From positions 144,772,001 through 144,836,000 of the forward strand of contig NC_086097.1 in assembly GCF_963921235.1 (NCBI RefSeq): 64,000 nucleotides of DNA, read 5' to 3'. Under the pieces are notes generated by a model that saw only the letters and a list, made by a program, of their open reading frames with translations, searched no databases and was not told where the DNA came from. Below are positions 3,101 to 64,000 of this stretch, in pieces (position 1 is the stretch's first letter; every line of letters begins with the position of its first letter). This DNA comes from Mobula hypostoma (taxonomy: Eukaryota). Made by a program: the position numbers and the translations under genes.

Positions 3101-3134
3101 TGCTTGTCCCAGACGTACAGGAGGCTGTCCTGAT

Positions 3135-3827: not shown

Positions 3828-3853
3828 CTCTGGTCCAAATATCGTTTGGGCCA

Positions 3854-3865: not shown

Positions 3866-3867
3866 AT

Positions 3868-4152
3868 TGTAGCGATGTGCTACACACAGCGCTAGAATAA
3901 CCACACGGAGTTGGTGAGTTAGAGTTGCGATGAAAAAGATTTATTCAAACTTTGCGGCCCGCTTTAAAGCCTTCCCGTTCCCGTCCTCCCTGGGCGGGAC
4001 TGCTGTGGGGAATGCATATTCCCAGATCCTTTCTGCGCGCGGGATTTTCCCCCTGCTGGTGAAGATGGCCTGGCGCCCTTTTTGGGGCCGGCCCTCTACC
4101 TGCGCGCGCTGTTGTGAGCCGGTTCGTGTGTGCCAGAAAGTGGGTCGCCACA
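3868..4152 (-). repeat. 5' LTR (285 bp)
   Basis: Termini TGTAGCGA...TCGCCACA (TG..CA, imperfect inverted ends). Abuts the PBS, with AT-richer host DNA beyond 4152. Confidence 0.9.
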
Positions 4153-4969: not shown

Positions 4970-5435
4970 TATTTACTAAGATTCGGTGAAAAGCTTTTCT
5001 TGTTGGGGGAAGGAAAAGTGTACAAACTGGAAGGTTATAGGTGAATCCAAGCAGATGGGGATGAAGAAGCTGGGAGGTGAAAGGCTGGAGAAGAAGGAAC
5101 CTTCTTCCCAGAAGGAGAGTGGACCGTGGGAGAAAGAGAAGGTGGAGAGGCATCAGAGAGAAGTGATAGGCAGGTGAGAAGTAAAGTGGGGGGGAACAGA
5201 ATGGGGAGTTGAAGAAGAGTGAAGAGGGAGGGGGGAGAATTACACTGTTGGAAGAATCAATGTTCATGCCATTAGGTTGGAGGCTACCCAGTCAGAATAT
5301 GAAGTGCTGCTCCTCCAACCTGAGCGTGGCTGCACCATGGCAGTAGGGGAGGCCATGGGCCAATATTTTAGAATGAGAATGGAGATCAGAGGTAAAATGG
5401 TTGGCCACCAGAAAATCCTCCTTTTTGTGGATGGA
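4970..5435 (-). mobile_element. Penelope-like element 3' fragment (GIY-YIG C-terminus and pyrimidine-rich UTR), degraded
   Basis: Minus strand resembles ...RLEEQHFIF*LGSLQPNGMNIDSSN, homologous to 28400-28500. Confidence 0.75.
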
Positions 5436-7009
5436 GACTGAAAGATCCAAAGTCTCTCTTTTATAGGAGACTATTTTATAGTTTTATAACAACAGGGCCT
5501 TATGGTATGTGCTTTCAGACTATCCTGTTATCTGCCCAATAAGAGAGGGTAGAAGAGAGAATGTCCGGGGTGGGTGGGTCTTTGATATGCTGGCTGCTTT
5601 ACTGCGTTCCATTCCGTAAATACCAAAGTGGAAAGGATGATTAAAGAAAAAAATAAATGCTCATGAAAGTAGTCATGATCTGTCTAACTTGGTCCTCTAA
5701 AACATGAACTTCTGCGAGACACTTTAAATATGGATAATATGTTTGTGTAACATGTCACTCAAATAGCAATAAAATTTAAATTCACGTGCGTGTTCTTGAT
5801 TGATGCTTTTTCAAATGGAGATTAAACAGAATTTAGAGAAGCCAAATAGATTGATCTCTGTGCTAATGTCTTTCCTATTTTTAATTATTTCCCAATGTTT
5901 GGCAGACTTTGACAGTCATGATGTTTATTCTGAATCTGCTAATTCTTACTTTGCCTGAGAAGGGGGCTTTCCATACTTCAGAAGTTGGACCAATGTGATC
6001 AGCTCTCCAGTCACATTTTAGCCAGGCTAGATAGAATCAGCCAATTTCCTTCTTTGGAGTACCTAAGCAGACCAACTGGGTATACAACAAATGTGTAATA
6101 GCTTATGGTCATTTCTACTTCTATCAATTTTTGTTCAATATTCTAGCAAAAAACAATCTCCAGAATTATTTTTTTGGACTCCACAGTAAAATTTGCCCTC
6201 AATCTTATTTTCAGCTGAGCAAGATAATCACAACACAACACTCACAAAGTTATGAAAAAAAAATGCCTTGCTAGCCTTCTTACCAGCTAGTATGGGGTTC
6301 TCTTATGTGCCGAGTAGAAACAGACAATAGGTTAACGTGAATACTTGCTCGTATCAATCAATGTCCCATTGAGTTAGAACTAACTGTGTTGTTCTTTGGC
6401 TTGATGCATGAGTTGGCAGTCATTCTGAAATTGAGTCTGGCCTGGGAAACAAAAGGATGGTGTTATGTGGGAGAACACTGGCACCAAAACAATTGGATGC
6501 TGCCCCGGAGGTCCTGGTGCAAAAGGTGCAAGAGAAGAGAGTTATCCTGCAGGAGAGATTAGCAAGGGCCTGAGAAGACTCCCAAATCTATGCAAAACAA
6601 GAAAAGGGAACTTTTAACCATGGATGTCAATACCTGGACGCAAGCCCAGAGCGTTTATATAAAATAGGTGACAAAGAGTATCATCAAAGACAGAGAATGC
6701 TTCTTATATCCCTCATCCTGTCAAGCATTCTGTCGATCACAACACTTTATAATTCATCAATCTCTTATTACTCACCTACACACAATCACTGTCATCTGGA
6801 GTTCATAACTAACTTGCAGAAGAAGCTGATGTGAATCAAGAAATGCTTGGTGCAGTAGGTAGGAAGCCTTTCAGAACATGAATAAACCTGTCACAATTAG
6901 GGCACAGGACTTCATAAGAATATGGAAGTGCAGAAGAATTCTGCGCACCTGACTCCCAAGGCTTGAACATCCTGACAACTGTCTAACCATGGCAGCCATT
7001 TTACCTAGA

Positions 7010-13050: not shown

Positions 13051-13203
13051 TGCTTTGCCTACTGTGTTATTTTAAAAATTGCATCCAGTTCAGATTAGTT
13101 CCAGAAACAGCCTTGAAACTGGTGTCTGGTTATTTACCTTTATAGTGAACGTTGTGAGTTTGAAGAAACTTATGCTCATCTTCAAACATTGGCATGTATT
13201 CAG

Positions 13204-13397
13204 CAAGCAATCTGCTGCAGGAACCCAGTGGGTCAACCAGCATCTGCGGGAAGAAAGGAATTGACGACGTTTCAGTTGAAACCCTGCATCAGGACCCCTA
13301 ATTCTTTTCCTCCCACAGATGCTGCATGACCTTCTGAGTTCCTCCAGCAGATTGTTTGTTGCTCTAGAGCCCAACATCTGCCGTCTCTTGTGTCTCC
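13204..13397. mobile_element. Palindromic mini-Penelope insertion (older subfamily)
   Basis: Imperfect inverted arms, one-sided tail, TSD-like tggcatgtattcag/tggcatgagatcag (13190-13203, 13398-13411). Confidence 0.7.
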
Positions 13398-14487
13398 TGG
13401 CATGAGATCAGTTCTGCTCACACGTCTGAGTAAGTCATCCAAAAGCAAGTGAATTTTCTCATTCTTTTACTGAAGCTTTGGAGGAAGGTTGGCAAAAATA
13501 CTGATGAGATGATCAAGTGGAGCTTGTGTCAGTAGTAAAGCACTGCTGTGGGAGGGGGTCTAAGGAACTTTACTCTACCAGCCCTTGCACCCCACCTATC
13601 AATTTCACCCTTAAGTATATGACTTGGATTCTGGAACGTTTTATAGTCATTGCCCAATAGACTGCCAGACAATAGATGATATAATTGCTCATTATATTGA
13701 AATAAACAGCAACAAATGACACATTGGTAAATTCTACCATTTTATCTGCTTAAACTGCAAACAAGTGTGCACACACATGGTTCTAATTTTTTCCGTGTTT
13801 TTCCTTAGTTTTCTGGACTTAACCAAGCAGATTACACGGTAGCAATTAGCCTGTCTAAAATGCCCAAAGTGCTTGTAAGAAAAAAAAACAATCTTGGAAA
13901 TCAAGTCTCCATATGAAAAGCATGTATTCTATAGTCATTATTCAGGTACAACTGTACCCGTGTTTAAGGTGGTGCCCAATGCCCGTTTCAAGGCTCTCTG
14001 GGAAATTGGATACCAGAGTAACGCACTAACTTAAAAATAAACATTCTCCAATCTGATTAACTGAAGAAAATTCTGCATCTCAAAAAACAGGACCACTGCT
14101 AATCCCAGCATCTTAATCTCTTCATGAAGATATTATTTACTCTGCTTTTGGATAAAAAGAAACATCAACTATCCAGATCCCTCAACTGGTTTGGTGAATT
14201 TTGAAAATCAGCAATTGAATTTTTGACCAAATCGTTGTTTAAACCTGCAATCAAGGTTATAAAATATAAAATTCTTTACAATCTTCAGCATTCAACCTTC
14301 AGTATTTAAAAGTAAGTTCAACAGTTTTGCATCATTTTTGTTCTGACAACAGGCAATGGCTTCCTAATGACACCTCATTTTCCTCAGCTAACACATTTGA
14401 TGCAGTTCTGCACTATCATCCATTTTATATTTCACAACTCCCACCTTCTTTGCCAGTCAGCCTATTCTTATTGCTCTCCCATATTTC

Positions 14488-26927: not shown

Positions 26928-27320
26928 AGAATCAGAATCAGGTTTAATATGTTGTGAAATTTGTTGTCTTTGTGGCAGCAGTGCAATGCCATACATAATA
27001 ATAAAGAAAAGATATGAATTACAGTAAGTATACATATTAAATAGATAAATTAAATAAGCAGTGCACAAAGAAAAAAAGTAGTGAGGTAGTGTTCATGGGT
27101 TCAACGTCCATACAGAAATTGGATGGCAGAGGTGAAGAAGCTGTCTCTGAAATGATGAGTATGTGCCTTCAAGTTTCTGTACTCCTTCCTGATGGCAGTA
27201 ATGAGAACAAAGGCATGACTTGGGTGATTGGGGTTCTTACTGATGCATGCTGCCTTTTTGAGGCATCACTTCTTGAAGATGCCCTGGATGATATGGAGGC
27301 TAGCATTACCACTGTACTGG
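26928..27320 (-). mobile_element. Rex1/Babar-like LINE 3' end
   Basis: aatcagaatcaggtttaatat tail, same family as 38763. Confidence 0.75.
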
Positions 27321-27496
27321 CTCATTATCATTCTACTGGCTCTTTGGAAGATGCCCTGGATGATATGGAGGCTAGCATTACCACTGTACTGGCTCATTAT
27401 CATTGTATTGGCTCTTTGGAAGATGCCCTGGATGATATGGAGGCTAGCATTACCACTGTACTGGCTCATTATCATCGTACTGGCTCTTTGGAAGAT
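27275..27496. repeat. 72-bp tandem repeat, 3 copies plus 6 nt
   Basis: Units start at 27275, 27347, 27419 and are near-identical. Confidence 0.95.
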
Positions 27497-27759
27497 TTAG
27501 AAATGTCACATTTCCCTCTCCAATCTCCAAATTTTGCAAGTGGATATAATTTCCTGTACCTAAATTCCAGTACTTCTCCTCATCCAACTATCTTAAATCT
27601 GTGACATCTGATATTTGACTGTGCTGTCAATGAGAAAGTCTTCAAATGTTCCACAATAACGTAAACTGTCACTTCTGTGATCATTTAACTCTCTGTATGA
27701 TTTACAAGATCAGATATAACATGTAGCCCAAACAGGGTCATGGCAAGAAGGTCAAACGT

Positions 27760-29370
27760 GCAACATAGAACAGTATGGCCAATGATGTCTATGCCAAACA
27801 TGATGCCAAATTAAACCAATCACTTCTGTTTGTACATGATTCATGTCTCTGCATCCCCTGCTTATTCATGTGTCCATCTAACACCACTATCGTATCTGCT
27901 TCCAACATATTCCAGACACCTAGGGTGTAAAAAAAAAACTTGCCCTTCATATCTCCTTTAAACTTTACCCCCGCACCCTAAAACTATCCCTTCTAGTATT
28001 TGAAAAGGCAAACATGAGGAATTCTGCAGGTGCTGGAAATTCAAGCATTCCTAGTGAGGTGGCAGAAGGATGGAGTGAGAGCAGATGTGCATGAATGGGG
28101 GAGATGCGTTTGAGAGCAGAGTTGACGGTGGAGGAAGGGAAGCCACTTTCTTTAAAAAGGGAGGACATCTTCCTCGTCCTGGAACAAAAAGCCTCATCCT
28201 GAGAGTAGATGCGGTGGAGACGGAGGAATTGCGAGAAGGGGATGGCATTTTTGCAAGAGACAGGGTGAGAAGAGGTGTTGCTGAACACCTACGCTCTGTC
28301 CGCCAGAGAAAGCAGGATCTCCTAGTGGCCACACATTTTAATTCCACATCCCATTCCCATTCTGATATGTCTATCCACGGCCTCCTCTACAGTAAAGATG
28401 AAGCCACACTCAGGTTGGAGGAACAACACCTTATATTCTGTCTGGGTAGCCTCCAAACTGATGGCAGGAACATTGACTTCTCAAACTTCCGCTAATGCCT
28501 CACCTCCCCCTCGTACCCATCCGTTATTTATTTATATACACAAATTCTTTCTGTCTCTCTCCTTTTTCTCCCTCTGTTCCTCTGACTATACCCCTTGCCC
28601 ATCCTCTGGGTTTTTCCCCCTCCCCCTCTTCCTTCTCCCTGGGCCTCCTGTCCCATGATCCTCTTATATCCCTTTTGCCAATCAACTGTCCAGCTCTTTG
28701 CTCCATCCCTCCCCCTCCTGTCTTCTCCTATCATTTTGGATCTCCCCCTCCCCCTCCCGCTTTCAAATCTCTTACTAGCTCTTCCTTCAGTTAGTCCTGA
28801 CGAAGGGTCTCGGCCGGAAACATCGACTGTAGCTCTTCCTAGAGATGCTGCCTGGCCTGCTGCGTTCTCCAACGACTTTGATGTGTGTTCCTTCTAGTAT
28901 TTGATATTTCTACCATGGTAGAAAGTTCCTGCCTGTTGGCCCTACCTTCGCCTCTAATAATTTTATAAATCTCCATCAGATCTCTCCTTAGCTTCTGATG
29001 CTACAGAGAAATCAATCCAACCTCCCCCTATGGCTATGCCCTCTTTTACTCCCTAAATCAATCCAACCTCTCCCTATGGCAACATCCTGGTGAACCTTTT
29101 CTGCATCTTTTCCAAAGTCTTCATATCTTTCCTGTAATGGGGCAACCAGAAATGCACACAATGGAAGTGAAGCTGAAGGCACTGTTGAAGGTATGAGTAC
29201 ACCATTTGACTCATTGCTAATGCTCTCTATTGCAGGCAGTTTCTTGGTGAACAACTTTGGCAACCTCTCCAAAGCCTCCACATCCTTCTTGGAATGAGGT
29301 GACCAGAGCTATAAGCAAAACTCCAAGTGTGGACTAACCAAAGTTTCATACAGCTTTGACATGAATTCTC
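27760..29370 (-). mobile_element. Old CR1 3' fragment interrupted by a Penelope insertion
   Basis: aacatagaacagta tail at about 27762; EALERLPKLFTKKLP-like remnants at 29200-29350. Confidence 0.7.
28004..28889 (+). mobile_element. Penelope-like element, 5'-truncated with inversion, 15-bp TSD
   Basis: GIY-YIG C-terminus AEHLRSVRQ...VATHFN...RLEEQHLIF on +; inverted RT C-terminal piece SSHPVSCKNAIPFSQFLRL on - (about 28050-28275); TSD CCTTCTAGTATTTGA at 27989-28003 and 28890-28904. Confidence 0.9.
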
Positions 29371-29554: not shown

Positions 29555-31750
29555 AAAGTTCAAGCTTAAAGTTCAGAGTAAATTTTATTATCAGCGTACA
29601 TATATGTCACGACATAGATCACTGAGATACACTTTCCTGCGGGCATACTCAGCAAATCTATAGAATAGTAACTGTAACAGGATCAATGAAAGATCAACCA
29701 GAGTGCAGAAGACAACAAACTGTGCAAGTGCAAATATAAATAACAAGATAAAGAGTCCTTAAAGTGAAATCATTGGTTGTGGTAACATCTCAATGGATGG
29801 GCAAGTGAGTGTAGTTATCCCCTTTTGTTCAAGAGCCAGAAGATTGAGAGGTAGTAACTTCGTGAACCTGGTGGTGCAAGTCCTGAGGCATCTGTATCTT
29901 CTATCTGACGGCAGCACTGAAAAAATTGCGTGGCCTGTGTGGTGAGGATCCCCGGTGATGTTTTCATGCAACAGTGTTTCATGTAGCTGCACTTAATAGT
30001 TGGGAGGGCTTTACCCATGGATGTACTGGGCTGAATCTACTACCTTTTGAGAGATTTTCCATTCAAAAGCATTGGTGTTTCTATACGAGGCGAGGGAAGA
30101 GATTGCTGAGACTCGGTCTAGGATCTTCCTGTCCTCGTTGTGCACAGGAATGATACCAGAGGATTGGAGGGAGGCGAATGTTGTCCCCTTGTTCAAAAAA
30201 GGTAGCAGGGATAGTTCAGGTAAATATAGACCAGTGAGCCTTACGTCTGTGGTGGGAAAGCTGTTGGAAAAGATTCTTAGAGATAGGATCTATGGGCATT
30301 TAGAGAATCATGGTCTGATCAGGGACAGTCAGCATGGCTTTGTGAAGGGCAGATTGCGTCTAACAAGCCTGATAGAGTTCTTTGAGGAGGTGACCAGGCA
30401 TATAGATGAGTGTAGTGCAGTGGATGTGATCTACATGGATTTTAGTAAGGCATTTGACAAGTTTCCACACGGTAGGCTTATTCAGAAAGTCAGAAGGCAT
30501 GGGATCCAGGGAAGTTAGGCCAGGTGGATTCAGAATTGGCTTGCCTGCAGAGGGCAGAGGGTGGTGGTGGAGGGAGTACATTCAGATTGGAGGATTGTGA
30601 CTAGTGGTGTCCCACAAGGATCTGTTCTGGGACCTCTGCTTTTCGTGATTTTTATTAACGACCTGGCCATGGGGGTAGAAGGGTGGGTTGGTAAGTTTGC
30701 AGATGACACAAAGGTTGGTGGTGTTGTAGTTAGCGTAGAGGATTGTCAAAGATTGCAAAGAGACATTGATAGGATGCAGGAGTGGGCTGAGAAGTGGCAG
30801 ATGGAGTTCAACCTGGAGAAGTGTGAGGTGATACACTTTGGAAGGACAAACTTCAAGGCAGAGTACAAAGTAAATGGCAGGATACTTGGTAGTGTAGAGG
30901 AGCAGAGGGATCTGGGGGTACATGTCTATAGATCCCTGAAAGTTGCCTCACAGGTAGATAGGGTAGTTAAGAAAGCTTATGGGGTGTTAGCTTTCATAAG
31001 TCGAGGGATAGAGTTTAAAAGTCGCGATGTAATGATGCAGCTCTATAAAATTCTGATTGGGCCACACTTGGAGTGCTGTGTCCAGTTCTGGTCACCTCAC
31101 TATAGGAAGGATGTGGAAGCATTGGAAAGGATACAGAGGAGATTTACCAGGATGCTGCCTGGTTTAGAGAGTATGCATTATGATCAAAGATTAAGGGGGT
31201 TAAGGCTTTACTCTTTGGAGAGGAGGAGGATGAGAGGAGACATGATAGAGGTATACAAGATATTAAGAGGAATAGATAGAGTGGGCAGCCATTGCCTCTT
31301 CCCCAGGGCACCACTGCTCAATACAAGAGGACATGGCTTTAAGGTAAGGGGTGGCAAGTTCAAGGGGGATATTAGAGGAAAGTTTTTTACTCAGAGAGTG
31401 GTTGGTGCATGGAATGCACTGCCTGAGTCAGTGGTGGAGGCAGATACACTAGTGAAATTTAAGAGACTACTAGACAGGTATATGGAGGAATTTAAGGTGG
31501 GGATTAAATGGGAGGTAGGGTTTAAGGGTCGGCACAACATTGTGGGCCGAAAGGCCTGTACTGTGCTGTACTGTTCTATGTTATACCTGGGCATGATGTA
31601 GCCAGTCCATATACTCTCCACCACACATCTATAGAGGTTTGTCGAGGTTTTTGATGTCATGCCAAATTTCCGCAGAGTCCCGAAGAAGCAGAGGCACTGC
31701 CATGCTTTCCTCACAATTGAACTTACATACTCGGCCTAGGACAGGTCCCA
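29555..31750 (-). mobile_element. Rex1/Babar-like LINE fragment split by a CR1 insertion (halves about 29555-30086 and 31582-31750)
   Basis: Colinear halves either side of the CR1, with TATAC at both junctions. Confidence 0.75.
30087..31581 (+). mobile_element. Young 5'-truncated CR1 LINE (RT region)
   Basis: PEDWREANVVPLFKKG, YRPVSLTSVVGK, DFSKAFDK, GVPQGSVLGP, KFADDTK; one stop at about 30516; gttctatg tail. Confidence 0.95.
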
Positions 31751-34344: not shown

Positions 34345-35565
34345 ATACATCTATTGATGCTTCTGGACACATCTTCAGTGATGTTCCTGGAATCATCGGG
34401 TGTTTCGGGTCTTTCAACATCATACAATCTCCTCCAGGTGACCCAGCCGGGGCTGATCAGACCCCAGCTTGTGTCCAGATGGCTAGCTACTTATGACTCC
34501 ATGGCTCCCCTCTTTTGAGCCACAGCCATCTTGAGGCCCTCTCTGCCGCATCGGTGATACTGCGGATGGCTCTCCTCTTCCTCTCTCCCTCGATGCCCAA
34601 AATGCTGAAGGCTCTAACTAAAGAACGGGCTATGAATCCCCTACAACCAACCTCCACTGGGAGACACCTCGCTCTCCATCCAGCCTGGTGACATTTGCTG
34701 ACCAGTCCTGCCTACTTGGAGAGCTTCCTTTCAAAGGCCTCTTCCAAGCTATCTTCCCATGGGACTGTCAGCTCCAGTAGTACCACTTGCTTAGTAGATT
34801 CATACACTAGGACAATGTCTGGTTGCAGGGTGGTGGCTGCGATATGGTTGGGGAACTTCAGCTGCCCTTCGAGGTCCACCAACAGCTGCCAGTTCCTTGC
34901 AGAGGTCAGAATGCCTGCAGATGTTCTTTTGGCAGGTATTGGCTGCTCCCCAGCTCTGACAAAGGCAATGGTCTGCTTGGAGAGTCGGGACCGCTTCGCC
35001 CACTCAACTCCTGCGCTGACGGCTTCAGCGATGGTCTTCAGGACCTGATCATACCTCCACCTGTACCATCCCTCACCAAGTGCCCTTGCACAGCCGCTGA
35101 GGATGTGCTCCAGGGTTCCTCGCTTGCAGCACAGTTGGCACACAGATGACTCTACCTTGCCCCATGTGTGCAGGTTTGATGGGCTTGGAAGCACATCGTA
35201 CGCTGCCTGGATGAGAAATTGGATGCGGTGTGGTTCGGCTTTCCAAAGATCAGCCCAGGTCACTTTCCTCTCAACCGCATTCTCCCATCTTGTCCAAGCT
35301 CCCTGTTGCTTCATTCCCACCGCCTTGCAGGCTCTCATCTCCTCCACTACTGCCCTCACCTCCTCCTGAACTAGACGATGCCTTTCCTTCCCTCTGGTGT
35401 CCATTTGGGGAGTTGGAAAGGATCCTAGCCCAGCTTGGCCTTGTGTGACCACTCCCACCAGCCTCCTGTGACGCAGCCTCGCCTCTGCCTCCTGAACAGC
35501 TTCCTCTGCCCTCCACTTCCTGCCAGTACTTACTTGGATCCCTGCTCTAGCTACCTTTTTAGTAT
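34345..35565 (-). mobile_element. HERO-like (R2-group) non-LTR retrotransposon, 5'-truncated, CCHC plus restriction-like endonuclease
   Basis: CQLC...EHILSGC knuckle, RWRYDQVL, PDIVL...LLELTVPWE, PVEVGCRG. One internal TAG (34712-34714); the same frame ends at 34487. Confidence 0.85.
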
Positions 35566-35623
35566 CTAATGGTGTTCCCTCAGTTAAGAAAGGCACAGGG
35601 AAAACCTAGGTAACTAGAGGCCA

Positions 35624-35894
35624 ACAACAGGAATTCTGCAGATGCTGGAAATTCAAGCAACATACATCAAAGTTGCTGGTGAACGCAGCAGGCCAAGCAG
35701 CATCTATAGGAAGAGGCGCAGTCGACGTTTCAGGCCGAGACCCTTCGTCAGGACTAACTGAAGGAAGAGTGAGTATCCCTTACTCACTCTTCCTTCAGTT
35801 AGTCCTGACGAAGGGTCTCGGCCTGAAACGTCGACTGCGCCTCTTCCTATAGATGCTGCTTGGCCTGCTGCGTTCACCAGCAACTTTGATGTAT
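35624..35894. mobile_element. Young palindromic mini-Penelope insertion with 14-bp TSD
   Basis: Perfect inverted arms 35661-35775/35781-35895, 37-nt unpaired tail 35624-35660, TSD GTAACTAGAGGCCA (35610-35623, 35895-35908). Confidence 0.92.
35800..35837 (+). ncRNA. Minimal type I hammerhead ribozyme motif (mirror copy on - at 35719-35756)
   Basis: tagtc-CTGACGA-agg gtctcgg cct-GAAA-cGTC-gactg: helix I agtc/gact, helix II agg/cct, palindromic helix III region typical of Penelope hammerheads. Confidence 0.75.
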
Positions 35895-35895
35895 G

Positions 35896-37070
35896 TAACT
35901 AGAGGCCAGTGAGCTTTATATCAGTGGTAGGGAAATTGTTGGGAAAATAGTTCTATGGCAGAGGATTTGTGTATGTTTAGAAAGCAGGGACTGATCAAGT
36001 ATAGTCAGCATAGCTTTTTGTAGGGAAATCCTGATTCATTCATTCATTTTTTTAGGAGGTAACTAAGAAGTCTGATAAAGGCAGAGTAGGAGTTATTGTC
36101 TACTAATGCATTTGACAAGGTACCAGATGATATACCGGACCAGAGATTAATAATAATTGAATCCAAAATTAGATTAATGATAGAAGGCAGAAGGTAATCT
36201 TGAAAGAATGCTTTTCTGATTGGAAGTCTTTGACCAAAAGTGCATCTCCAAGGATTGGTGGTTGGGGAAATTATTGTGATATCTAATAATGACTTGGATG
36301 TGGATGTAGTTGTATGATTAGTAAGACTTTGGATGGTACAAAAGTCCGTGGTGTTGTGGACAATGAGTAAGGTTTCAACAGGATGTAGATTATAGATTAG
36401 ATGGAAGTTGGACAGAGCGTTGGCAGATGAAACTTAATCATGACAAATATATGTTGGGAAGTCAAATAAGAGTAGGACATATATCTTTAGTATATAGTAG
36501 GGTGCTAAGGAATGTTGATAAATAGAGTGACCTTGGGGTTCAAATCTAGCCATTGCTCAGATTACATTTGGGGTACAGTGCACAATCCCAACTTCCCAAA
36601 CTATAGAAAGAATATGGTTGCGCTTGAAAGAGTACAGAGGAGATTTTTTAGGATGTCACCCAAATTGAAGGATGTTAGTAACTGGGAGAGATTAGACAGA
36701 TTAGATTTGTTTTCCCTGGACCAAAGGAGGCCGAGGGTGATCTGACACAAAATTATAAGTAGCACAGATAGAGTAGATAGCCAGAAGCTTTTTCCCATGG
36801 TAGAGATGTCAAAAACAAAGGAACTTAAGTTTTAGGTGAATGGCAGGAGTTTTAAAGGGCATCAAAGGAGGAAAGATTTTAGGGTAGTTGCTATCTACAA
36901 CTCACTTCTGGAGGAGGCAGTGGAGTCAGATATAAACATTCCATTTAAGAGATATTTGGATATTTAAATAGGAAAAATACAGACCTAGTGCAGGAAGTGT
37001 ATGTGTACAAAAGGTCAGCAGGGACATGATAGGCCAAAGAGCTTGTTTCTGTGCTTCAAACTCATGACTT
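35896..37070 (+). mobile_element. Degraded CR1 (RT to 3' end)
   Basis: Remnants RPVSFISVVGKLL, SQHSF, AFDKVP, ALERVQRRF. Confidence 0.8.
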
Positions 37071-38762: not shown

Positions 38763-41700
38763 AATCAGAATCAGGTTTAATATCATTGACATATGCTGTG
38801 AAATAATTGTTTATATATAAAATTGTAAAATTAGTACAGAAAGAGAGGGGGAAAATTCTGAGGTAGTAATCATGGTTTCATTGTCCATTCAGAAATCTGA
38901 TGGCGGAGATGAATAAGGTGTTCCTGAAATATTGAGTGTGGGTCATCAGGCTCTTGTACCTCCTCCCTGATGGCAGCCATGAGAGGAGGGCATGTCCAGG
39001 GTGATAGGGGTCCTTTTTGAGGCATTGCCTTTTGAATGTTCCTGGATAATGAGCAGACTAATGCCCGTGATGGAGCTGGCTGAGTTTACAACCTTCTGGA
39101 CCTTTTCCCAAACTGTACTGTACCCCGTTCCCCCCCCCCCCATACCAGATGGTGATGCAACTTGGGAGAATGCTCTCCACAGTAGAAAATACATAGAAGA
39201 CATAGAACATAGAAAACCCACAGCACAATACAGACCCTTTGGCCCACAAAGCTGTGCCGAACATGTCCTTATCTGAGAAATTAACTTGGGATACCCATAG
39301 CCCTCTATTTTTCTAAGCCACATGTACTTATCCAGGAGTCTCTTAAAAGACCCCATCGCATCTGCGTCCACCACCATCACTGGCAACCCACTCCACACAC
39401 TTACCACTCTCTGCGTAAAAAATTTACCCTTGATATCTCCTCTGTACCTACTTCCAAGCACCTTAAAACTGTGCCCTCTCATGCTAGCCATTTCAGCCCT
39501 GGGAAAAAGCCTCTGACTATCCACATGATCAATGCCTCTCATCATCTTATACACCTCTATCAGGTCACCTCTCATCCTCCGTCGCTCCAAGGAGAAAAGG
39601 CCAAGTTCACTCAACCTATTCTCATAAGGCATGCTTTCCAATCCAGGCAAAATCCTTGTAAATCTCCTCTGCACCCTTTCTATGGTTTCCACATCCTTCC
39701 TATAGTGAGGTGACCAGAATTGAGCACAGTACTCCAAGTGGGGTCTGATTCGGCTCCTATATAGCTGCAACATTACCTCTCAGATCTTAAACTCAACCCC
39801 ACGATTGAGGAAGGCCAATGAACCATATGCTTTCTTAACTACAGAGTCAACCTGCACAGCAGCTTTGAGTGTCCTATGGACTCGGACCCCAAGATCCCTC
39901 TGATCCTCCACACTGCCAAGAGTTTTATCATTAGTACTATATTCTGTCATCATATTTGCCCTACCAAAATGAACCACCTCACACTTATCTGGGTTGATCT
40001 CCATCTGCCACTTCTCAGCCCAGTTTTGCATCCCATCAATGTCCCACTGTAACCATTGACAGCCCTCCACACTATCCACAACACCTCCAACCTTTGTGTC
40101 ATCAGCAAATTTACTAACCCATCCCTCCACTTCTTCTTCCAGGTCATTTATAAAAATCATGAAGAGTAGAGGTCCCGGAACAGATCCCTGAGGCACACCA
40201 CTGGTCACCAACCTCCATGCAGAATATGACCCATCTACAACCACTCTTTGCCTTCTGTGGGCAAGCCAGTTCTGGATCCAGAAAGCAATTTCCCTTTGGA
40301 TCCCATGCCTTCTTATTTTCTCAATAAGTCTTGCATCGGGCACCTTGTCAATTGACTTGCTGAAATTTTTGGTCGAAGATGAGTGAATTTGGTGACATAA
40401 CAACTCTCCTCAAACTCTTAATGAGGTATAGCCACTGTCATACCTTCTTTTCAATTACATCCATATGTTGCATTCAGGATATATCCTCAGAGATACTGAC
40501 ACACAGGAACTTGAAACTGCTCACCCTTTCCACTTCTGATCCCTCAATGAGGACTGGTGGGTTTTCCCTTGATTTCCTCTTCCTGAAGTCCACAATCAAT
40601 TCCTTGGTCTTACTGATGTTGAGTGCAAGATTCTTGATGAAATACACTCAACCAGCTGATCTACCTCACTCCTCTACGTCTCCTCATCACCATCTGAAAT
40701 TCTACCAACAGTAGTTGAGTCATCAGCAAATATGTAGATGTCAGTTGAACTGTCCCTAGCTATGCCATCATGGGTATAGAGGGAGTAAAACAGTGGGCTA
40801 AGCAAGCATCCTTGAGGTGCACCAATGTTGATTGTCAGTGGGGAGGAGATGTTATTTCTGATCCACACAGATGGTGGTCTCCTGGTGAGGAAGTCAAGGA
40901 TCCAGTTGTAAAGGGAAGCACAGATTGTTTTTAATGCTGAGCTGCAATCAATAAACTACAACCTGATGTAGGAATTACATGGTGATGCAAGGCTGAGTGG
41001 AGAGCCAGTGAGATTGCACCTACTGTAGACCTGTTGCTGCGTTAAGCAAATTGCTCTGGGTCCAGGTCCTTACTTAGGCAAGAATTGAATCTAGCCATGA
41101 CCAACCTCTCAAAGCATCTCACCACAGATGTGAGTGGCACTGGGTGGTAGTCATTGAGACAGCTCACCCTGCTCTTTTTGGTCATTGGCATGATTGTTGC
41201 CCTTTTTGATGTCGGCCTCTGAGACAGAGATTACAGGGTCAGCAGATGCTGCAGGGATTCACAAAGGTGTAGATTTATTTCCCCTTTCAAAGTGTGCATA
41301 AGAGTCATTGAGATCATCTGGGAGTGAAACATCATAGTTAGCATGATGTTAAGTTTCACTTTGTAGGAAGTAATGGCCTACAAACTCTACCAGAGCTGAA
41401 GTGCGTCCGATTCCATTGCTAATCTTAACTGGAATTGTCTTACACCCTTAAAACAGCATTGTGTGGGTCATACCTGGATGACTTGTATAGTTCTGAATCA
41501 CTGGTCTTGAATCTGACAAATCTAGTCCCCAGCAGACTATGAATCTCCGGGTTCATCCATGGCTTTTTGTTTGGGTATGTTCTTGAAGGTATGCACTTAT
41601 CTACACAGGTCTTGATGAAGCCAGTGACTACTGTGACGTATTCATTCAGACTCAAAGACGAATCCCTGAATATTGTCTACCTTTGACCAAAGCAGTGCTG

Positions 41701-50413: not shown

Positions 50414-50437
50414 CAAAGTACTGCTAAACCGTAGTGA

Positions 50438-50752
50438 CACGCATAAAAGTTGCTGGTTAACGCAGCAGGCCAGGCAGCATCTCTAGGAAGAGGTACAGTC
50501 GACGTTTCAGGCCGAGACCCTTCATCAGGACTAACTGAAAGAAGAGCTAGTAAGAGAATTGAAAGATCTGAAGAGATTTGAAGAGCCTTTCAAATCTCTT
50601 ACTAGCTCTTCTTTCAGTTAGTCCTGACGAAGGGTCTCGGCCCGAAATGTTGACTGTACCTCTTCCTAGAGATGCTGCCTGGCCTGCTGTGTTCACCAGC
50701 AGCTTTCATGTGCGTTGCTTGAAACTCCAGCATCTGCAGATTTCCTCATGTT
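50438..50752. mobile_element. Palindromic mini-Penelope insertion with 16-bp TSD
   Basis: Inverted arms of about 125 bp, 37-nt tail on the right (50716-50752), TSD TGCTAAACC(G/A)TAGTGA at 50422-50437 and 50753-50768; hammerhead motif 50619-50656. Confidence 0.9.
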
Positions 50753-51979
50753 TGCTAAACCATAGTGATTAAGTTAGTTCCAAGTCAAATGGTTGAAGTG
50801 AGGTAGTTGTTTTGAACTTTGAGGTTCTATACTTTCCTCCCAAAGATGGTTGTGAGAAGATGGAAATACTTACATTCAACTCATTTAGCAGTCTGCTTGA
50901 CATTTAATCTATGGGACAGTAAATCACTAGGTTGAAGTGTTGCCTCAGTTTGGATGAAAATGCCAAACTCTGGTATGGAGCTTGGGCTAGCAACTTTCTG
51001 ACTGAGAGGCAAGAGAGCTACGACTGAGCCATGGCTAACACCCGACATTCTGCTATATTTCCCAGTCCAAGTTCACAACGTCCATTATGGTAAGGCTGAT
51101 TGTCATCCATGAAGCTGCATTGACATAAGCAGAAGTGCCTGAAGGGAAGCGGGGTGAGAATTAATATAAAACACTCATAAATATAAGCTCCTTTCAAAAG
51201 AGGTTCATCCAAGACAGTGCTGAATCAACTATCCCATCTGCATCATTGGCTGACCTAACAGGGCAGCATAAGGGGAGCTCTGGATGCACATTATGAGGAA
51301 ATGACCCTGAGGGGAGCTGAACGCTTTTCATTGAAGTGAAAGAACCAATTTAAATACAAAAAAAATACTGACAGGAATTTTTGACCTATTATTAATTAGC
51401 TTTCTTAATTCCACCAGGTCTCTTGCAGTCTCGCCCGTGAGTGGCCAATTGCTCTGTGATTGGATTACATAAGTCAATTATCTAAAGATTGTACCATAAA
51501 CTGTGAGACATTAACCCTGTCACCCATCTGACACACTGCAGAAATACTAAAGTGAAGCCTCAAAAGGCAATGGCCTTTCGTAATGTTCTTTTAATTAGTT
51601 CTGAGATAGTGATAGACCATTTCCTGTTTGAGTTCACCAAACATACTGCGCCAATCTAAAGAGAAAATAGCAATAAAACCAAGTTTTTTCACTAACTTAA
51701 CTCTTTAGAGACCAAATAGACCATCATCTGGAAAACAAAACTGCTTTGCATTTATACTTCAGTTTTTCCCAACGTGCTTTATAGCCAATTGAGTTCTGAG
51801 TTCTCCTGTAATGCAGTCAGCATTGTTTCCTTCTTAGGCAGTCACTTGGAGTCAGGAAAGACCTGTTTTCACTCTGTTTTCAGGTAGCTGATGAGGCCAT
51901 TGTGAGAGCGATCATCTCTTCCACAAATCTGGAAGGAAGTGACCGCACGGAGAAAGTACAAATAGCCCAGTTACTTGTT

Positions 51980-52430: not shown

Positions 52431-53640
52431 CCTCTCTTACTTCTCCCGAAGGCCAGATAAGTGCTCCCTGAATAACAATGTCGATTCACTTGCCCCTTCA
52501 ACGTGCCATGACAATCTTTGGGTCACAGCTTCTAATGAGCACATTTCCATTTGAAATAAAGGAGGCTATTCAGCCCTCTGAATTCATACCAGCATGCAGA
52601 GCAATTCCATGTCTCCCTGTGACCTACCCTGCTCATATTCCCATCAAACCTGCTACATTTTACACTCTCCACACCACCACTCCAAGGACAACTTGCAACA
52701 GCCTACCAACCTGCATGTCCTCCGAATGTTCAAATTTCAAAGTTCATGATCAAAATACACATACTGGTATGTCAACGTATACCACCCAGAGATTCTTGCA
52801 GGCATCCACAGTAGAACAAAGAAATACGATCGGATCAGTGAAACTGTAGCTCTGAAAGAAACAAACATGGTCAGAGGACAAATATGCAAACTCCACGCAG
52901 ACAGTGCTGGAACTGGAATGGGCTGTGAATATCATGAGGCATTGGCTTTGTTAGCTGTACCACTGTGCCACTCTGTAGGCGTACATTAGATAACAGATGA
53001 TTCATTTGAAAAAAAAAATTGGTTAATTGTGCAATGTCAGCCAAGATATTGGGTGGAAAAGGGCAAACAGTACTTAAGAAACACAAATATCCGAGGTAGG
53101 GGGAAGTATAGGATGTAGATGATACTGTAACCAGGGTTTTGAAGACCCTCTGGTTTATGAAGGATTATTTAGGATGGCTGGGGAGGGATTTATTTAAGTA
53201 GCCATATGCAGTTGTAAGATTAAAGTGCACAGATGAAGCTTTCAGCAGCAGATGAGCTAAGCTAGGTGATGTTACAAAGTTTGGAAATAGGTCGTCCTAG
53301 TTTTTAGCAATGGCATGGATGTGAAGTCTGTAGGTTTTTCTCAGGATTCAGACATAACACCAAGGGTACGAGTATTTTGGCTCAGTTTCAGACAAATACT
53401 TAGGAAAGGAATTGATCAGTGGACAAGGAGCAGAGAACAGGAACCATCCTGAAGCCGATTATTTGAAAAGTATCATGTATCATGAGATCTTTCACGACAA
53501 TTTGTGAGAATGGAATTTCCCTCAGTTTAATGTAGCATCCGAAAGTCTGTTATCTCCAACCTTGAAGCAATGCTCACTCAGCAGTCCACCAAGCAGTCAT
53601 CACAAAAATAAATTCCGTTGTAGGATCTGGACACCATTAT

Positions 53641-55144
53641 CAAAACTCGTTAGATTCTGGACTAGTTCCTGAGGATTGGAGGGTGGCTAATGTAACCCCA
53701 CTTTTTAAAAAAGGAGGGAGAGAGAAACCAGGGAATTATAGACCGGTTAGCCTAACGTCGGTGGTGGGGAAACTGCTGGAGTCAGTTATCAAGGATGTGA
53801 TAACAGCACATTTGGAAAGCGGTGAAATGATCGGACAAAGTCAGCATGGATTTGTGAAAGGAAAATCATGTCTGACGAATCTCATAGAATTTTTTGAGGA
53901 TGTAACTAGTAGAGTGGATAGGGGAGAACCAGTGGATGTGGTATATTTGGATTTTCAAAAGGCTTTTGACAAGGTCCCACACAGGAGATTAGTGTGCAAA
54001 CTTAAAGCACACGGTATTGGGGGTAAGGTATTGGTGTGGGTGGAGAATTGGTTAGCAGACAGGAAGCAAAGAGTGGGAATAAACGAGACCTTTTCAGAAT
54101 GGCAGGCGGTGACTAGTGGGGTACCGCAAGGCTCAGTGCTGGGACCCCAGTTGTTTACAATATATATTAATGACTTGGATGAGGGAATTAAATGCAGCAT
54201 CTCCAAGTTTGCGGATGACACGAAGCTAGGTGGCAGTGTTAGCAGTGAGGAGGATGCTAAGAGGATGCAGGGTGACTTGAATAGGTTGGGTGAGTGGGCA
54301 AACTCATGGCAGATGCAATTTAATGTGGATAAATGTGAAGTTATCCACTTTGGTGGCAAAAATAGGAAAACAGATTATTATCTGAATGGTGGCCGATTAG
54401 GAAAAGGGGAGGTGCAACGAGACCTGGGTGTCATTGTACACCAGTCATTGAAAGTGGGCATGCAGGTACAGCAGGCGGTGAAAAAGGCGAATGGTATGCT
54501 GGCATTTATAGCGAGAGGATTCGAGTACAGGAGCAGGGAGGTACTACTGCAGTTGTACAAGGCCTTGGTGAGACCACACCTGGAGTATTGTGTGCAGTTT
54601 TGGTCCCCTAATCTGAGGAAAGACATCTTTGCCATAGAGGGAGTACAAAGAAGGTTCACCAGATAGATTCCTGGGATGGCAGGACTTTCATATGAAGAAA
54701 GACTGGATGAACTGGGCTTGTACTCGTTGGAATTTAGAAGATTGAGGGGGGATCTGATTGAAACGTATAAGATCCTAAAGGGATTGGACAGGCTAGATGC
54801 AGGAAGATTGTTCCCGATGTTGGGGAAGTCCAGAACGAGGGGTCACAGTTTGAGGATAGAGGGGAAGCCTTTTAGGACCGAGATTAGGAAAAACTTCTTC
54901 ACACAGAGAGTGGTGAATCTGTGGAATTCTCTGCCACAGCAAACTGTTGAGGCCAGTTCATTGGCTATGTTTAAGAGGGAGTTAGATATGGCCCTTGTGG
55001 CTACGGGGGTCAGGGGGTATGGAGGGAAGGCTGGGGCGGGGTTCTGAGTTGGATGATCAGCCATGATCATAATAAATGGCGGTGCAGGCTCGAAGGGCCG
55101 AATGGCCTACTCCTGCACCTATTTTCTATGTTTCTATGTTTCTA
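53641..55144 (+). mobile_element. Young 5'-truncated CR1 LINE (second subfamily)
   Basis: VPEDWRVANVTPLFKKG...YLDFQKAFDKVP...GVPQGSVLGP...KFADDTK; one stop at 54664-54666; (tttctatg)n tail. Confidence 0.95.
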
Positions 55145-57194
55145 TAATGGTCATCATTGATTGTCCAGTTATGTTTTCCCTCTGGAATTAGTGGCTAGTC
55201 AGGCCATTAATTAGTTAATTACATTGGTTGGTCTGCATCCCTTCATCTAGAAAGAGCCTTCAGTCCCCAGCCTCTGACTGAGAGGCATGCATGCCAAAGC
55301 AGATCTCATAGTAGAAGGTACTAGACATAATAAGAAGATCAAAGTAAAAAGTAAAGCAAAAAAAACAGACAATAGGCTTTAAATCTGAAATGTAAAATAC
55401 AAGCAGAAAATACTGGAAATACTCATCAGGGCAGGACACATCTATGGGAAGTGATGTGGCCTGACCTTCTGAATATTTCCAGCAATTTCTCTTTTTATTG
55501 AACAGACAACGAATATGGTCTCTGAGATGTTGCAGAGAGAACGTCAGAGAAAATCCTAAAAAGCATTTTTTTGAGTTCTAAGGAAAGGTTAAGGAAATTG
55601 ATCTGAAGATAAATTAAGAAAAGCTAATTAAGACTAGGGTTAAAACAGACAAAGTGAATTCAGGAAAACATATTTCAGTTGTTCAAGAAGATAAAACTGA
55701 GGATATGAATTGCAGGAAGGTGAAATTTAGAAGGGTGGTCAAGTAAGAGCTTCGATATGACAGAACTATGTGTCTAAGCAATGTATTCGAAAAATAAATG
55801 GTACCTCTGGATGCTTGTAGAAGAAAAGATGGAATAGGAAAGTAAGCAGTTGGTGTTGAGCAATAAAAATTGGATGGGCTGATTGGATTTCTAGCCTTTT
55901 CCTATTCTTAAAATAAATTATGCTGTTATTGAGAGCCAACTCAGTTTGTATTGGCTGACCAATTTTTCACCTTTCTAATCCTAGAAGGAGCATCCAATTC
56001 TTAAACCTGTCAAGGTTTGGTTAAAAATGTGAATAGCATTCCACAACATCTTAGCCTGAAAACAACTCAGCCTTCTCATTTGTTACAACAGATTATGATT
56101 TCATTTTCTATTACTGTGGAAGCCCACCAGTCTCAAGAAAAGTCTCAGGGATGTATTTGTTGACATGTCACATTCACACTAGCCTAAGGTGCATCATTAA
56201 AAAAAAATAACCTGATACCTAACTTCAGTTTCACTCTCAAACTTGTTAACAAGATATCTCATTAGACGGGAACATTTGCCTGCAATTGAATCTCATAAGT
56301 TGTTTCCTTGATGTTTCTGAAGAAAAGCCAGATCACCAATCACACTAATGGTGATGATCGCTGGGTCTCGCTGGGTTTTTTACTGAACGCTGCTGTGGGA
56401 GCACACTCATGGGATTTGACCCAAAATAATATATTATGCCAAGACCACTTTTGCTCTGCAGACAAATGTTTAAAAAAATCCAGAGTGGAATTTTAATATC
56501 TACTATTCACCCCTTCACACAAAATGGATCTGTTACCATTGTGTTGTAGGGCCTTGCTGTGTGAAGATTAACTGCAATGCTACTTATTTTGAAATAAATG
56601 TTTGAAGGTTACTTCATTGGCTCTTTGGGATGTGCTGGAGTCGGAAAAGGACTATAAAATCCAGTTCTTCCTATATCTGAAGATGTTTATCTGGCCATTT
56701 ATTTCAACCCTGGGATATCGCAAATTAGCTGCAAACTTTTCTTACAGTAGCTGGCCAACGATGCAGTGAAGCCAACTGGCCAAATGATTACTGGCCTTTT
56801 TTTTGATGGGGCTGAGACCTATCATTAGTCTTGACTGAAGGTGAAGAGCCAAAAGTGAACCATATGTGCCACCCAAATTACCCTGATAACCTGGTAACAA
56901 CTTCTGCTATCAAAGACCCTTTCAACAATTTCTAAATTATCACAGGTAAAAGAAATTGAGATGGATTTAAATTCTTTATAGCTATACTACAAATATTTTA
57001 ATGAATTAGAGATAATTTTATTTAAAACCATATTAATTAAGACCAATTAATTAAAAACATTAAAATTAATTAAAATGAACAAACCACTTATCTTGACTTG
57101 TTTTCCATCCAAATTAACAACTCCATTCAAAGGAATGGAATTCCGGTCACCACACGAGCCCTGACCAGTGCAAAACTGTAGAATTAGGGGGAAT

Positions 57195-57570: not shown

Positions 57571-58612
57571 AGGGGGTGAAAACTCAGTTGTCACCAATTC
57601 AATGGGTTGAAATTACTTCCTTTCCCCACCATATCTTGCTCCCTAGCTAAGCACATCTGAGCACTGCCAAGTCCAGTAACAGAGTATTAAATATGAAACC
57701 AGATAAGTTGCCATCTGACCACCAGAGAGTCCTATTCTTACACACAGCTGTGCAGTGCTATAAATGGGTGGTTCTAGAGAAAAACGCAAGCTGACTAGGA
57801 CATGATCTAGGCCATTAGCAATGCCACCAGAATACTTCCCAAGCTATTTCAGACATCTTAAACTAATTTTACTTTTCACTTCCTCTCCTTCCTCACGTCT
57901 CCATGGAAAATCCTTTGACACTGTTACCCAGCAACATATACAGTGGTGCAAGTTGCTGCCACTAACTGCTGATAAAGAGTTATTTGTTGATGGGAGTGGT
58001 AGAGTTCAAATCAGTCTTCGTTTTGTTTCCCATTAAAAATCTGGTCTGAAAGGTTCAACGTGAGGGGAACAGCAGGGAAGCAAAAAGTGGCAAAGGATGC
58101 ACTTCTTCAATGATGAATGGAAAGTTGAATTGAATCCACAACCAGGCATACAAAACCTGTAAACATAAAAAAGTCTGCAGATGCTAGAAATCCAAAGCAA
58201 CACACACAAAATGATGGAGGAACAGCATCAGGTCAGGAAAAAATAAACAGTTGACATTTTGGGCTGAGACCCTTCTTCAGGACCTGTATAAAGCCTGTAT
58301 CACCCACCATCCAGTTATGAATTACTGAATGAAAAAGTCAAATAATGTGGCTTTTTCTTTTCTCAAATAAGAATACAAAATCATAACCAATCCAGTGTGC
58401 AGGGTGCAGACACAGGTACTGAACCTGGTTAAAGGTAGACAGGAAAAATACACTAAATTAAAAAAAGCAGAAAATGCTGTTTTGACTGGACACATTCACC
58501 AAAAGTGACTCAGAATAGTTATGTTTTTCAATCAGAATGAAAGTTCTGGAAATATTCAGCAAGTTAGCCAGCAACTATGGAAAGAGGGGCAGAGAAAGAA
58601 TATTTTGTCCAA

Positions 58613-61955: not shown

Positions 61956-63039
61956 GCAGATGTGAAAGGTGTGACGAAAATGTCTGAGCCTTCAGAAGGA
62001 ACTTCCAAAAAACGGAGTAAGATAAATAAACTACTTTTGGATCCGATTTGATTTCATAAAAGCAAAATTTATCTGAAAGTTTGTTCTGTTGAATACCATT
62101 CAATAACCTTTCACCCTGGAACATCTTAAACTTCCATTCTGAGGCAATCATCATGTTATCTCCAAATTTACACATTGTCCAGCTATCTGGAGAGCAGGAG
62201 TCAAACAGATTTTCCATTGTAATTAATGTTTTTGGTAGAGTAGACCACATTTTTATTACCATCTACCTGTTATTTGGCCAATAAGCATAAAATCCTACTC
62301 TTTTTATGGTGAGAAGCCATTTCAGTGTATTTTATGCATGTCTTTAAAGTTTTCCAGATCCTCTTTGTTTTGGTTCTCCCATAAGATCAAGCTATTAAAC
62401 AATAAAATAGCTCTCAAAATGAATCAACACTAAGGAAACCCCTTCTATTCCCAATAGCTGCAGAGCCAATCAAGCTTTACACTGGCTACAGGCCAATTAA
62501 TTCAGATCACTGTCTCGCAACATCATCTCAGACAAAAGAAAGTGTAATTATTATCAGGAAGAGACACAATTTTTTGATTAAAACCAGACTACATTGGCCA
62601 TTGATTTCATCCTCCCTCTTCTCTTCTTAGCCCAATGACTGTATCAATCCAGAAGTAGAGATAGCCTTTACTTTTGTAATATACCAGAGTGGAAAACGTA
62701 GTCTACAGCTACACATAAACAGTATTTCCAAAGAATTTTCTGCAGGATAATGCTGGCAAAAGTGAAATTGGTCTAAGGAAGATCTCAGTCACAGAGACTG
62801 TGAGTTCTAATGCCAGCTTCATGAGGTTAATTTGCACCAACCTGAACCTTCCTGGACTGACCTTTGACTGTTAGAGTGGCCCAGCTTTGGGCTCAACAGG
62901 CTTAGCCAAGAATAAGATTGGGCAATCACAAATGGAGGTTCTAAATAAGTAAGAAAGTTCCTAGTAAGCAACACACACAAAAAATGCTGGTGAACACTGC
63001 AGGCCAGGCAGCATCTATAGGAAGAGGTACAGTCCACAG

Positions 63040-64000
63040 GTCCTAGAAAGTTTTATTTTTCTGTAGTACATAGCTAATGCACTGAAAATGGATCTGGAAG
63101 TAGTGGTATGTTCCTTGTATGAGATGTGGGAAATTTGGGAGACCTCCAGTCTCCATGATAACTACATCTCCACAAAGTGCATTGAGCTGCAGCTCCTTAG
63201 AGACTACGTTAAGTAACTGGAGCTGCAGCTTGATGACTTTCAGCTCATATGGGAAAATGGGGATGTGAAAGATAAGAGCTGCAGGGAGGTAGATAGCCCA
63301 AAGCTGCAGGAGGCAGGTCCTTGGGGGACTGTCAGGAGAGGTAAAGGGAACAGGCAGATAGAGCAGAGTAGCTCTGTGGCCGTTCCACTCAATAGTAAGT
63401 ACACTGCTTTGGATACTGTTGGGGGCAATACCCTGCCGGGGGAAGTACAGCAACAGGGTGTCTGGCACTGACTGGTTCTGTGGTTCAGAAGGGAAGGGGT
63501 GGGGAGAAAAGGGGAGCAGTAGAGTAGGGGATTCCATAATTAGAGGAACAGAAAGCAAATTCTGTGGATGTGGAAGAGACACCGGGACGGTATGTTGTCC
63601 CAGGTGTCAGGGTCAGGTCTACATCATTCTAAAGTAGGAATGTGAACAGCTGGAAGTCCTGGTACATACTGGTACCAACGAATAGGTAGGAAAAGGGAGG
63701 AGGCCCTAAGAGAGAATATAGGGAGTTAGGCAGAAAGCTGAAAAGCAGAATTTCAGGGCAGTAATCTCTGGATTGCTGCCTGTGCTATGTGCCAGTGAGG
63801 GTAAGAATAGGATCATTTTGGTGTTATGTAATGACCCAGATTTGATTAGGAAGCTGAAGGCAATGGCACCCTCAGGAGACAGTGATCATAATATGATAGA
63901 ATTCACCCTGCGGTTTGAGAAGGAGAAGGTAAAATCAGATGAATCAGTATTACAGTGGAGTAAAGGGAATTACAGAGGCATGAGAGAGGAGTTGGCCAAA
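63040..64000 (+). mobile_element. CR1 5' region: decayed ORF1 (zinc finger/leucine zipper, SGNH esterase) joined by deletion to the ORF2 endonuclease C-terminus
   Basis: VVCSLYEMWE, CIELQLLRDYV, VPLNSKYTALDTV, VGDSIIRG, VHTGTN; jump at about 63815 to VLCNDPDLIR...SDHNMIEF. Confidence 0.85.

Follow-up and report, generated by a model that had tools for sequence, protein, structure and literature searches.

A palindromic Penelope-like 3' terminus in a ray genome, probably formed by priming at both target nicks

The locus at 35610-35908 raises two questions: what kind of element consists of a perfect palindrome with an extension on one side only, and how could such a structure have entered the genome? 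All positions given here are those of the window, i.e., the whole 64-kb stretch of ray DNA that was analyzed. The inverted match covers 116 nt without a single difference (116/116; 35660-35775 against 35781-35896) and encloses a 5-nt loop, TCCCT. The longest exact direct repeat in the flanks is 14 bp, with copies that begin at 35610 and 35895; a rough estimate puts the probability that such a 14-nt match flanks both ends by chance at ~1e-6. Because the right arm and the right target site duplication (TSD) overlap by 2 nt, the arm measures 114 to 116 nt and the tail 36 to 38 nt. The 115-bp arm and 37-nt tail of the original prediction lie within these ranges, and its loop of 5 nt and TSD of 14 bp are confirmed.

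The unit is 271 nt long and contains no coding DNA, and there is no tandem repeat at this locus. The tail is present on the left arm only, and 5 extra nt are present on the right arm only. These 5 nt form the loop: they are five more bases of the element, belong to the right arm, and align with longer copies at 28740-28895 and 50587-50752. In contigs of the family, loose ends start before 35775, where the element continues upstream, and the contig table shows loose ends accumulating before 35623 and 35629. The unit is the 3' terminal module of an element, with one tail end and one tail-less end as its outer ends. Its centre consists of two unequally truncated heads that are joined with 1 base shared (Table 1).

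Table 1. Features of the palindromic unit, its target and the related copies in the window
Feature	Positions	Strand	Basis
Target: decayed LINE fragment, presumably CR1-type, split by the insertion	35568..36025	+	
Left TSD copy, 14 bp	35610..35623	.	Exact repeat; single copy in the probable empty site of organism B
Tail, 36-38 nt, outermost 3' part of the element; absent from the right arm	35624..35659	-	Bounds of the inverted match; loose ends of the family
Inverted arm (left): PLE terminal repeat truncated at its 5' end, with the element's sense strand on minus	35660..35775	-	116/116 against the right arm
Putative minimal type-I hammerhead, predicted cut between 35724 and 35723	35719..35756	-	Descriptor match at 35751-; mirrors the plus-strand motif
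Loop, 5 nt, element bases of the right arm; head-to-head joint shares one base (35775)	35776..35780	+	Longer copies; loose ends of the family
Right arm, element sense, ends at the tail-less 3' site; overlaps the TSD by 2 nt (35895-35896)	35781..35894	+	
Putative minimal type-I hammerhead, predicted cut after C35832	35800..35837	+	Descriptor; features in PMC4209133
Right TSD copy, 14 bp	35895..35908	.	Exact repeat
Longer non-palindromic copy, 886-nt insertion, 15-bp TSD	27989..28904	.	
Second palindrome, older, opposite orientation, other subfamily, 315 nt	50422..50768	.	

A blastn search of the 64-kb window with the tail and arm as the query returns 13 hits, two of which are the unit itself and 11 lie elsewhere. 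The longer copy at 27989-28904 links the module to coding DNA. Its left part contains an inverted tail (28004-47) and an inverted piece of the reverse transcriptase (RT) thumb (28048 to ~28278); these are followed on the plus strand by a GIY-YIG C terminus with a stop near 28495, the 3' region, the hammerhead region, and a tail-less end at 28889. The 3' module at 28760-28889, downstream of the GIY-YIG C terminus, shares 107 of 121 positions with that of the unit. Coding DNA for a Penelope-like element (PLE) is thus found at 28279-28889, upstream of the same 3' end as in the palindrome. Of 27 candidate proteins, the GIY-YIG C-terminal peptide matches four, each of which comes from a ray, with 89% identity in Mobula hypostoma (P0004) and 74 to 85% in Hypanus sabinus, and the RT-thumb peptide agrees with P0004 in 56 of 72 residues. 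P0004 contains the YIDD motif, a CX4CxxC linker (identified by eye), and a weak GIY-YIG match (E = 5e-4, below the cut-off). Pfam matched neither of the two short window peptides, and the Atlas search yielded HTH_animal/GIY-YIG clusters only. A separate fragment of a PLE GIY-YIG C terminus, 62% identical to P0004, is found on the minus strand at 5253-5444.

The CX2-5CxxC linker marks the Neptune and Nematis groups (PMC8557442); it is found in the homologue P0004 and is missing from the window copy. The ray protein matches, together with the P0004 linker, indicate that the palindrome represents the 3' terminal module of an endonuclease-bearing (EN+) PLE of the Neptune/Nematis type. Its build agrees with this assignment: an inverted, 5'-truncated copy is joined at its 5' end, a tail of 30 to 40 bp is found on one side, the TSD has a probable empty site, and a minimal type-I hammerhead is present as a motif. 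Inverted 5'-truncated copies with a one-sided tail of 30 to 40 bp are typical of PLEs (PMC8557442, PMC3846280, PMC8969392), and a PLE tail of this length matches 35624-35659 (PMC8557442, PMC11167929). As the original prediction stated, PLE termini with minimal hammerheads and inverted terminal repeats (pLTRs) with a tail had already been established (PMC4209133, PMC3846280, PMC8557442). With the EN+ PLE insertions described by Arkhipova et al. 2013 (PMC3846280) and Craig et al. 2021 (PMC8557442), the unit shares 5' truncation, an inverted head-to-head copy, a tail at one end, a TSD, and unequal arm lengths at the junction. The TSDs of 14 to 16 bp seen here differ from those of 8 to 10 bp in the rotifer examples. 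Unlike in the described PLE insertions, the direct copy is cut down to a terminal repeat of ~120 nt, and the family reaches ~1e5 copies.

When the flanks of the palindrome are joined with a single TSD copy between them, they match another LINE copy, at 30177-30349, through the insertion point (72% over 175 nt, E = 2e-17); in tblastn they read through against the open reading frame 53566-54666 (15/20 aa, E = 6e-06). We take the target LINE at 35568-36025 to be of the CR1 type; the target site is not AT-rich. Contigs from four of the 24 listed runs were compared, among them X1 from organism A and X5 and X6 from a single sample of organism B. Two X1 contigs, which cover 35528-35645 (depth 14.4) and 35874-36500 (depth 15.2), show no differences from the window and enter the element in opposite orientations by 22 and 21 letters, respectively; the bridging rule of the tool is 31 letters. 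In organism B, X5 and X6 each yield a single contig that agrees with 35895-36500, leaving 85 letters unplaced. For 35562, 35572, and 35577, differences are recorded there at depths of 38.5 and 8.71 and at end distances of 38, 38, and 33, which are the values expected from the piece 35525-35609. From the matching depths and end distances in these two tables, we infer that the contigs of organism B cross from the left to the right flank via a single TSD copy, i.e., that the site is empty in this organism.

The flanks of organism B differ from the window at 10 of 691 sites (1.4%). Together with the probable empty site and its single TSD copy, this divergence argues that the insertion is real and young. 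The absence of differences between the arms (0/116) has a probability of 0.18 at 1.45% divergence, and its 95% upper bound is 2.5%. The insertion site may be polymorphic in organism A or B. The claim that the unit is one recent PLE integration product made of the ribozyme-bearing terminus only is thus upheld, by the inferred empty site and by the PLE coding DNA at 28279-28889.

A descriptor of minimal hammerheads, run on the 64-kb window and on 20 mononucleotide shuffles, matched four positions in the window, two in the unit (35805+ and 35751-) and two in the second palindrome (50624+ and 50528-), and none in any of the shuffles. The plus-strand motif has a helix I of 5 bp with one G-U pair (35800-04/35833-37), a core at 35805-11, an unpaired A at 35812, a helix II of 4 bp at 35813-24, GAAA at 35825-28, and a palindromic CG at 35829-30. 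A hammerhead in each arm, as originally predicted, is thus supported at the level of the motif, but each strand carries one sense motif and one antisense copy, not two ribozymes. Rfam returned no family at the gathering score across the 64-kb window, and its 14 matches to the unit at E ≤ 10 include no hammerhead, all falling below gathering and mostly involving generic miRNA-hairpin models. For this reason, the ribozyme call is based on the descriptor and on the features of minimal hammerheads in PMC4209133. The motifs of the unit share with the metazoan PLE hammerheads of Cervera and De la Pena 2014 (PMC4209133) a helix I of 4 to 5 bp, the lack of helix III, an unpaired base before helix II, and a palindromic 15.2-16.2 pair. 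They differ in having a helix II of 4 bp, in which G-U replaces G10.1-C11.1 (a C is found in one other window copy). In Schistosoma, dual minimal hammerheads lie on opposite strands, 100 to 700 bp apart (PMC4209133). The accessible text of that paper names no cartilaginous fish among the hosts of minimal PLE hammerheads.

The 271-nt unit is predicted to fold at -248 kcal/mol (z = -29.9), with none of 200 shuffles equally stable, and a single arm folds no better than its shuffles (z = -0.17). For the hammerhead helices to form, the whole unit would have to give up ~78 kcal/mol on either strand, against 9 kcal/mol for a single arm and 4 kcal/mol for the isolated motif. In a palindromic read-through RNA, the predicted hammerheads would thus be locked in the hairpin and unable to fold as ribozymes. 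These putative ribozymes appear to be passengers of the terminal repeat, and the unit likely has no function of its own. The long double-stranded RNA that had been predicted in the case of transcription would follow from this fold. In run X10, which is RNA by guess only, contigs of the family are present, and the unique flanks 35561-35611 and 35969-36376 are uncovered.

The second palindrome has a 16-bp TSD with 1 mismatch (50422-37 and 50753-68) and a tail on one arm. Its arms agree at 118 of 129 positions, and by our own reading 7 of the 11 differences are CpG transitions. The centre, at 50566-86, is a rearranged stretch of 21 nt; this stretch repeats ~13 nt of the arm end, resembling slippage or repeated priming. 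The arms are concordant within each palindrome, and 8 sites differ between the two palindromes. Both arms of the unit at 35610-35908 share family-minority alleles at 35663, 35696, and 35717, where the other letter accounts for 86%, 71%, and 65% of the X1 depth, respectively.

Across the family, 1,023 joints were counted, 15 of which are listed and 1,008 are not; not all of them are palindrome centres, at 88% likeness some represent other subfamilies, and many may be of this kind or other rearrangements. Nine of the 15 listed joints connect 35750-57 with 35801-07, and the deepest of them reaches 918 against a single-copy depth of ~15 (X1). This recurrent zone coincides with the strand that forms the 5' side of helix I and lies ~30 nt ahead of the predicted cut. 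It fits a truncation hot spot, and amplification of some palindromes would fit as well. The unit's centre lies ~25 nt upstream of this zone. In the older copies at 13221-13295 and 58171-58283 (71 to 72% alike), the alignment stops at the position equal to 35802, although subfamily divergence beyond that point could have the same effect. Short copies seem to stop mostly at the 5' edge of the hammerhead, ~30 nt before the cut; this edge might correspond to a fixed 5' terminus of the RNA.

The summed depth of the family is 1e6 to 1e7 against ~15 on the unique flank (X1), an order of magnitude and not a copy number; the ray PLE family has on the order of 1e5 copies. Pattern scans of viral_contigs, metagenome_contigs, and genome_contigs found no further copies. 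Older relatives of the family, 66 to 73% alike, are found in the window at 13201-13420, 55396-55499, and 58171-58283: an inverted pair of unequal arms, the shorter of which carries a tail-like extension; a small palindrome that has decayed; and one arm on its own that has a tail. A short single-arm copy at 62959-63046, the only one of its kind (n = 1), has its 5' end at the predicted hammerhead cut or no more than 3 nt away from it, and a weak TSD-like repeat.

Two known classes of short repeats were considered and rejected. The unit is not a MITE: its left arm is set off from its TSD by the 36- to 38-nt tail, and the two young palindromes of the window are unequal in length (271 and 315 nt) and have different centres. 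With animal non-LTR retrozymes (Cervera and De la Pena 2020, PMC7229834), it shares its small size, the absence of coding capacity, a type-I hammerhead, and kinship to PLE terminal repeats, and such retrozymes have been reported in one chondrichthyan genome (PMC7229834; Li et al. 2026, bioRxiv 10.64898/2026.07.22.740005). However, retrozymes are arranged head to tail, with at least two ribozymes on the same strand, and release circular RNA (PMC7229834; 10.64898/2026.07.22.740005), whereas the ray unit is arranged head to head, with one sense hammerhead per strand.

How the two arms came to be joined is best approached from their unequal ends. Since the tail is found on the left only and the 5 extra bases on the right only, no strand primed at one nick templates the whole unit. 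The original prediction of a fold-back integration footprint holds insofar as the inverted shape is such a footprint, but fold-back of one strand alone, from either target end, is rejected because neither arm contains all of the other and neither is a full template. The palindrome is probably a dead-on-arrival, 5'-truncated PLE insertion, in which both nicks were primed on one RNA and the products were joined head to head. A GIY-YIG endonuclease from a full-length copy, acting in trans or in cis, would nick both strands 14 nt apart. The top-strand 3'-OH would then prime cDNA at the tail start of the RNA, the bottom-strand 3'-OH would use the tail-less start on this one RNA molecule, and the cDNA products, ~120 to 150 nt each, would join head to head through microhomology. 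Two routes both fit. In route (a), strand displacement would copy the RNA twice and the two cDNA ends would anneal; to our knowledge, the PLE RT has no RNase H, a lack that this route needs. In route (b), the tail-less cDNA would snap back, leaving the 5-nt loop, and its copy would join the short tail cDNA.

All three young TSD-flanked insertions that can be read whole, which come from two subfamilies and include the non-palindromic copy at 27989-28904, have the tail at one end, and their other end lies within ~3 nt of a common tail-less site. In the non-palindromic copy, the inverted tail reaches just to the point at which the opposite end sets in, so that the two have 1 base in common, and is followed by a jump to the RT-thumb region; the two ends of this copy thus tile one RNA end. 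It is tentatively suggested, at somewhat less than an even chance, that the tail is the private stretch of a second primer and that PLE integration routinely primes both nicks on a single RNA, from fixed start sites ~37 nt apart. The tail-primed cDNA might then either run on over the same sequence or meet the snap-back, giving a palindrome, or jump upstream, as at 27989-28904.

In L1 twin priming, both target nicks prime cDNA, the inversion joint has a microhomology of 1 to 2 nt, and there is a single TSD pair; the second primer anneals internally, and the pieces do not overlap. In contrast, both pieces of the ray unit span one and the same stretch, and their fixed 3' starting points are ~37 nt apart. 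A closer counterpart is PAc, the Poseidon element of Anolis carolinensis (Frangieh et al. 2024, PMC11167929), which likewise has a hammerhead and two downstream RT starts that bound the tail. In vitro, its protein, a predicted dimer, nicks and extends both target strands, as proposed here for the ray unit, and ribozyme mutants leave insertion unaffected (PMC11167929). PAc prefers AT-rich sites (PMC11167929), and Poseidon has no CX2-5CxxC linker, whereas the ray target is not AT-rich and the ray partner protein carries this linker.

Priming at both nicks has to be weighed against other origins. Self-priming, in which the antisense strand, including the tail, would fold back at its 3' end and extend to a hairpin, with the endonuclease trimming one tail, has been proposed on an antisense template for head-to-head PLE junctions (PMC3846280); the palindrome would then likewise be a by-product of integration, but would need a single priming event. 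The origin of the loop from one arm is what a snap-back predicts, and the identity of the arms would follow directly. We nevertheless regard self-priming as unlikely: the fold-back at this locus would be closed by 1 bp only, and these tail and tail-less ends also bound the copy at 27989-28904, which is no palindrome and jumps to an internal RT region, so that a second priming event would be needed. The retrozyme- or MITE-like, self-propagating family that the original prediction had also allowed for would require a master palindrome whose transcripts the PLE protein returns to the genome at full length. The extreme abundance of the family would suit such a cycle, as would the recurrence of some centres far above single-copy depth and the intact PLE 3' end in which a minus-strand transcript would terminate. 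However, the different centre and subfamily of the second palindrome and the 1,023 joints argue against a self-propagating unit, and the unit's own centre is absent among the 15 joints listed. Moreover, there is no head-to-tail ribozyme repeat, the single sense motif on each strand would be buried in the predicted -248 kcal/mol hairpin, and a copy that is no palindrome has the tail-less end too, which makes its inheritance from a master unnecessary. This part of the original prediction is abandoned as very improbable.

Inverted repeats can be homogenised, and two templates, or two successive insertions at one site, might in principle have given arms that later gene conversion made equal. There is only a single TSD pair, the arms of the older palindrome have drifted (11/129) instead of being homogenised, and 0/116 differences are expected of a young copy anyway, all of which makes this origin hardly credible. 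Perfect palindromes are also a known class of artefact, and a fold-back chimera of the assembly or library has to be considered because no listed contig in the four runs spans the centre and X1 is possibly the source sample. Against it stand the short-read contigs that contain both junctions, without differences and in opposite element orientations, the unique flanks that are colinear with the empty site of organism B, and a decayed palindrome of like build 15 kb away. A mirrored read cannot yield a tail, a templated loop, and a TSD, and the chance of an artefact appears minimal. Among the titles and listings covered, which do not extend to Repbase/Dfam, no paper on the ray PLE family or on PLE twin priming was found, and a prior description is quite possible.

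The palindrome lies among other repeats. RT fragments of LINEs, which we assume to be of the CR1 type, are found at 30051-31601, 38946-40409, and 53566-54666. The CR1-type target adjoins a young-looking, high-copy non-LTR fragment on the minus strand (34712-35560) with a restriction-like endonuclease motif and a zf-RVT match below the cut-off (E = 2e-4); it presumably belongs to the HERO/R2 group. A GC-rich region at 1-4153 resembles an LTR retrotransposon with broken gag and pol frames and contains a 90-nt direct repeat (1-90 and 4064-4153). A tandem repeat at 27275-27496, with 3.1 copies of a 72-nt unit that are 96% alike, is located within the open frame 27041-27604.

The locus itself is unremarkable, a dead repeat that sits within an old LINE. 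Its mirror shape most likely records an already described process whose workings are poorly understood: the origin of PLE inverted repeats and one-sided tails is described as unresolved in PMC8557442 and PMC11167929. Such palindromes could be misannotated as MITEs or as miRNA hairpins, given that generic miRNA models score on the unit, and their read-through would give long double-stranded RNA. The combination of a young, undecayed copy, a probable empty site, and a non-palindromic sister whose ends tile one RNA end leads to sharp predictions that are testable in the ray genome. If priming at both nicks holds true, the ~1e5 copies of the family and the empty sites of a relative would let PLE integration be read from the junction statistics of rays.
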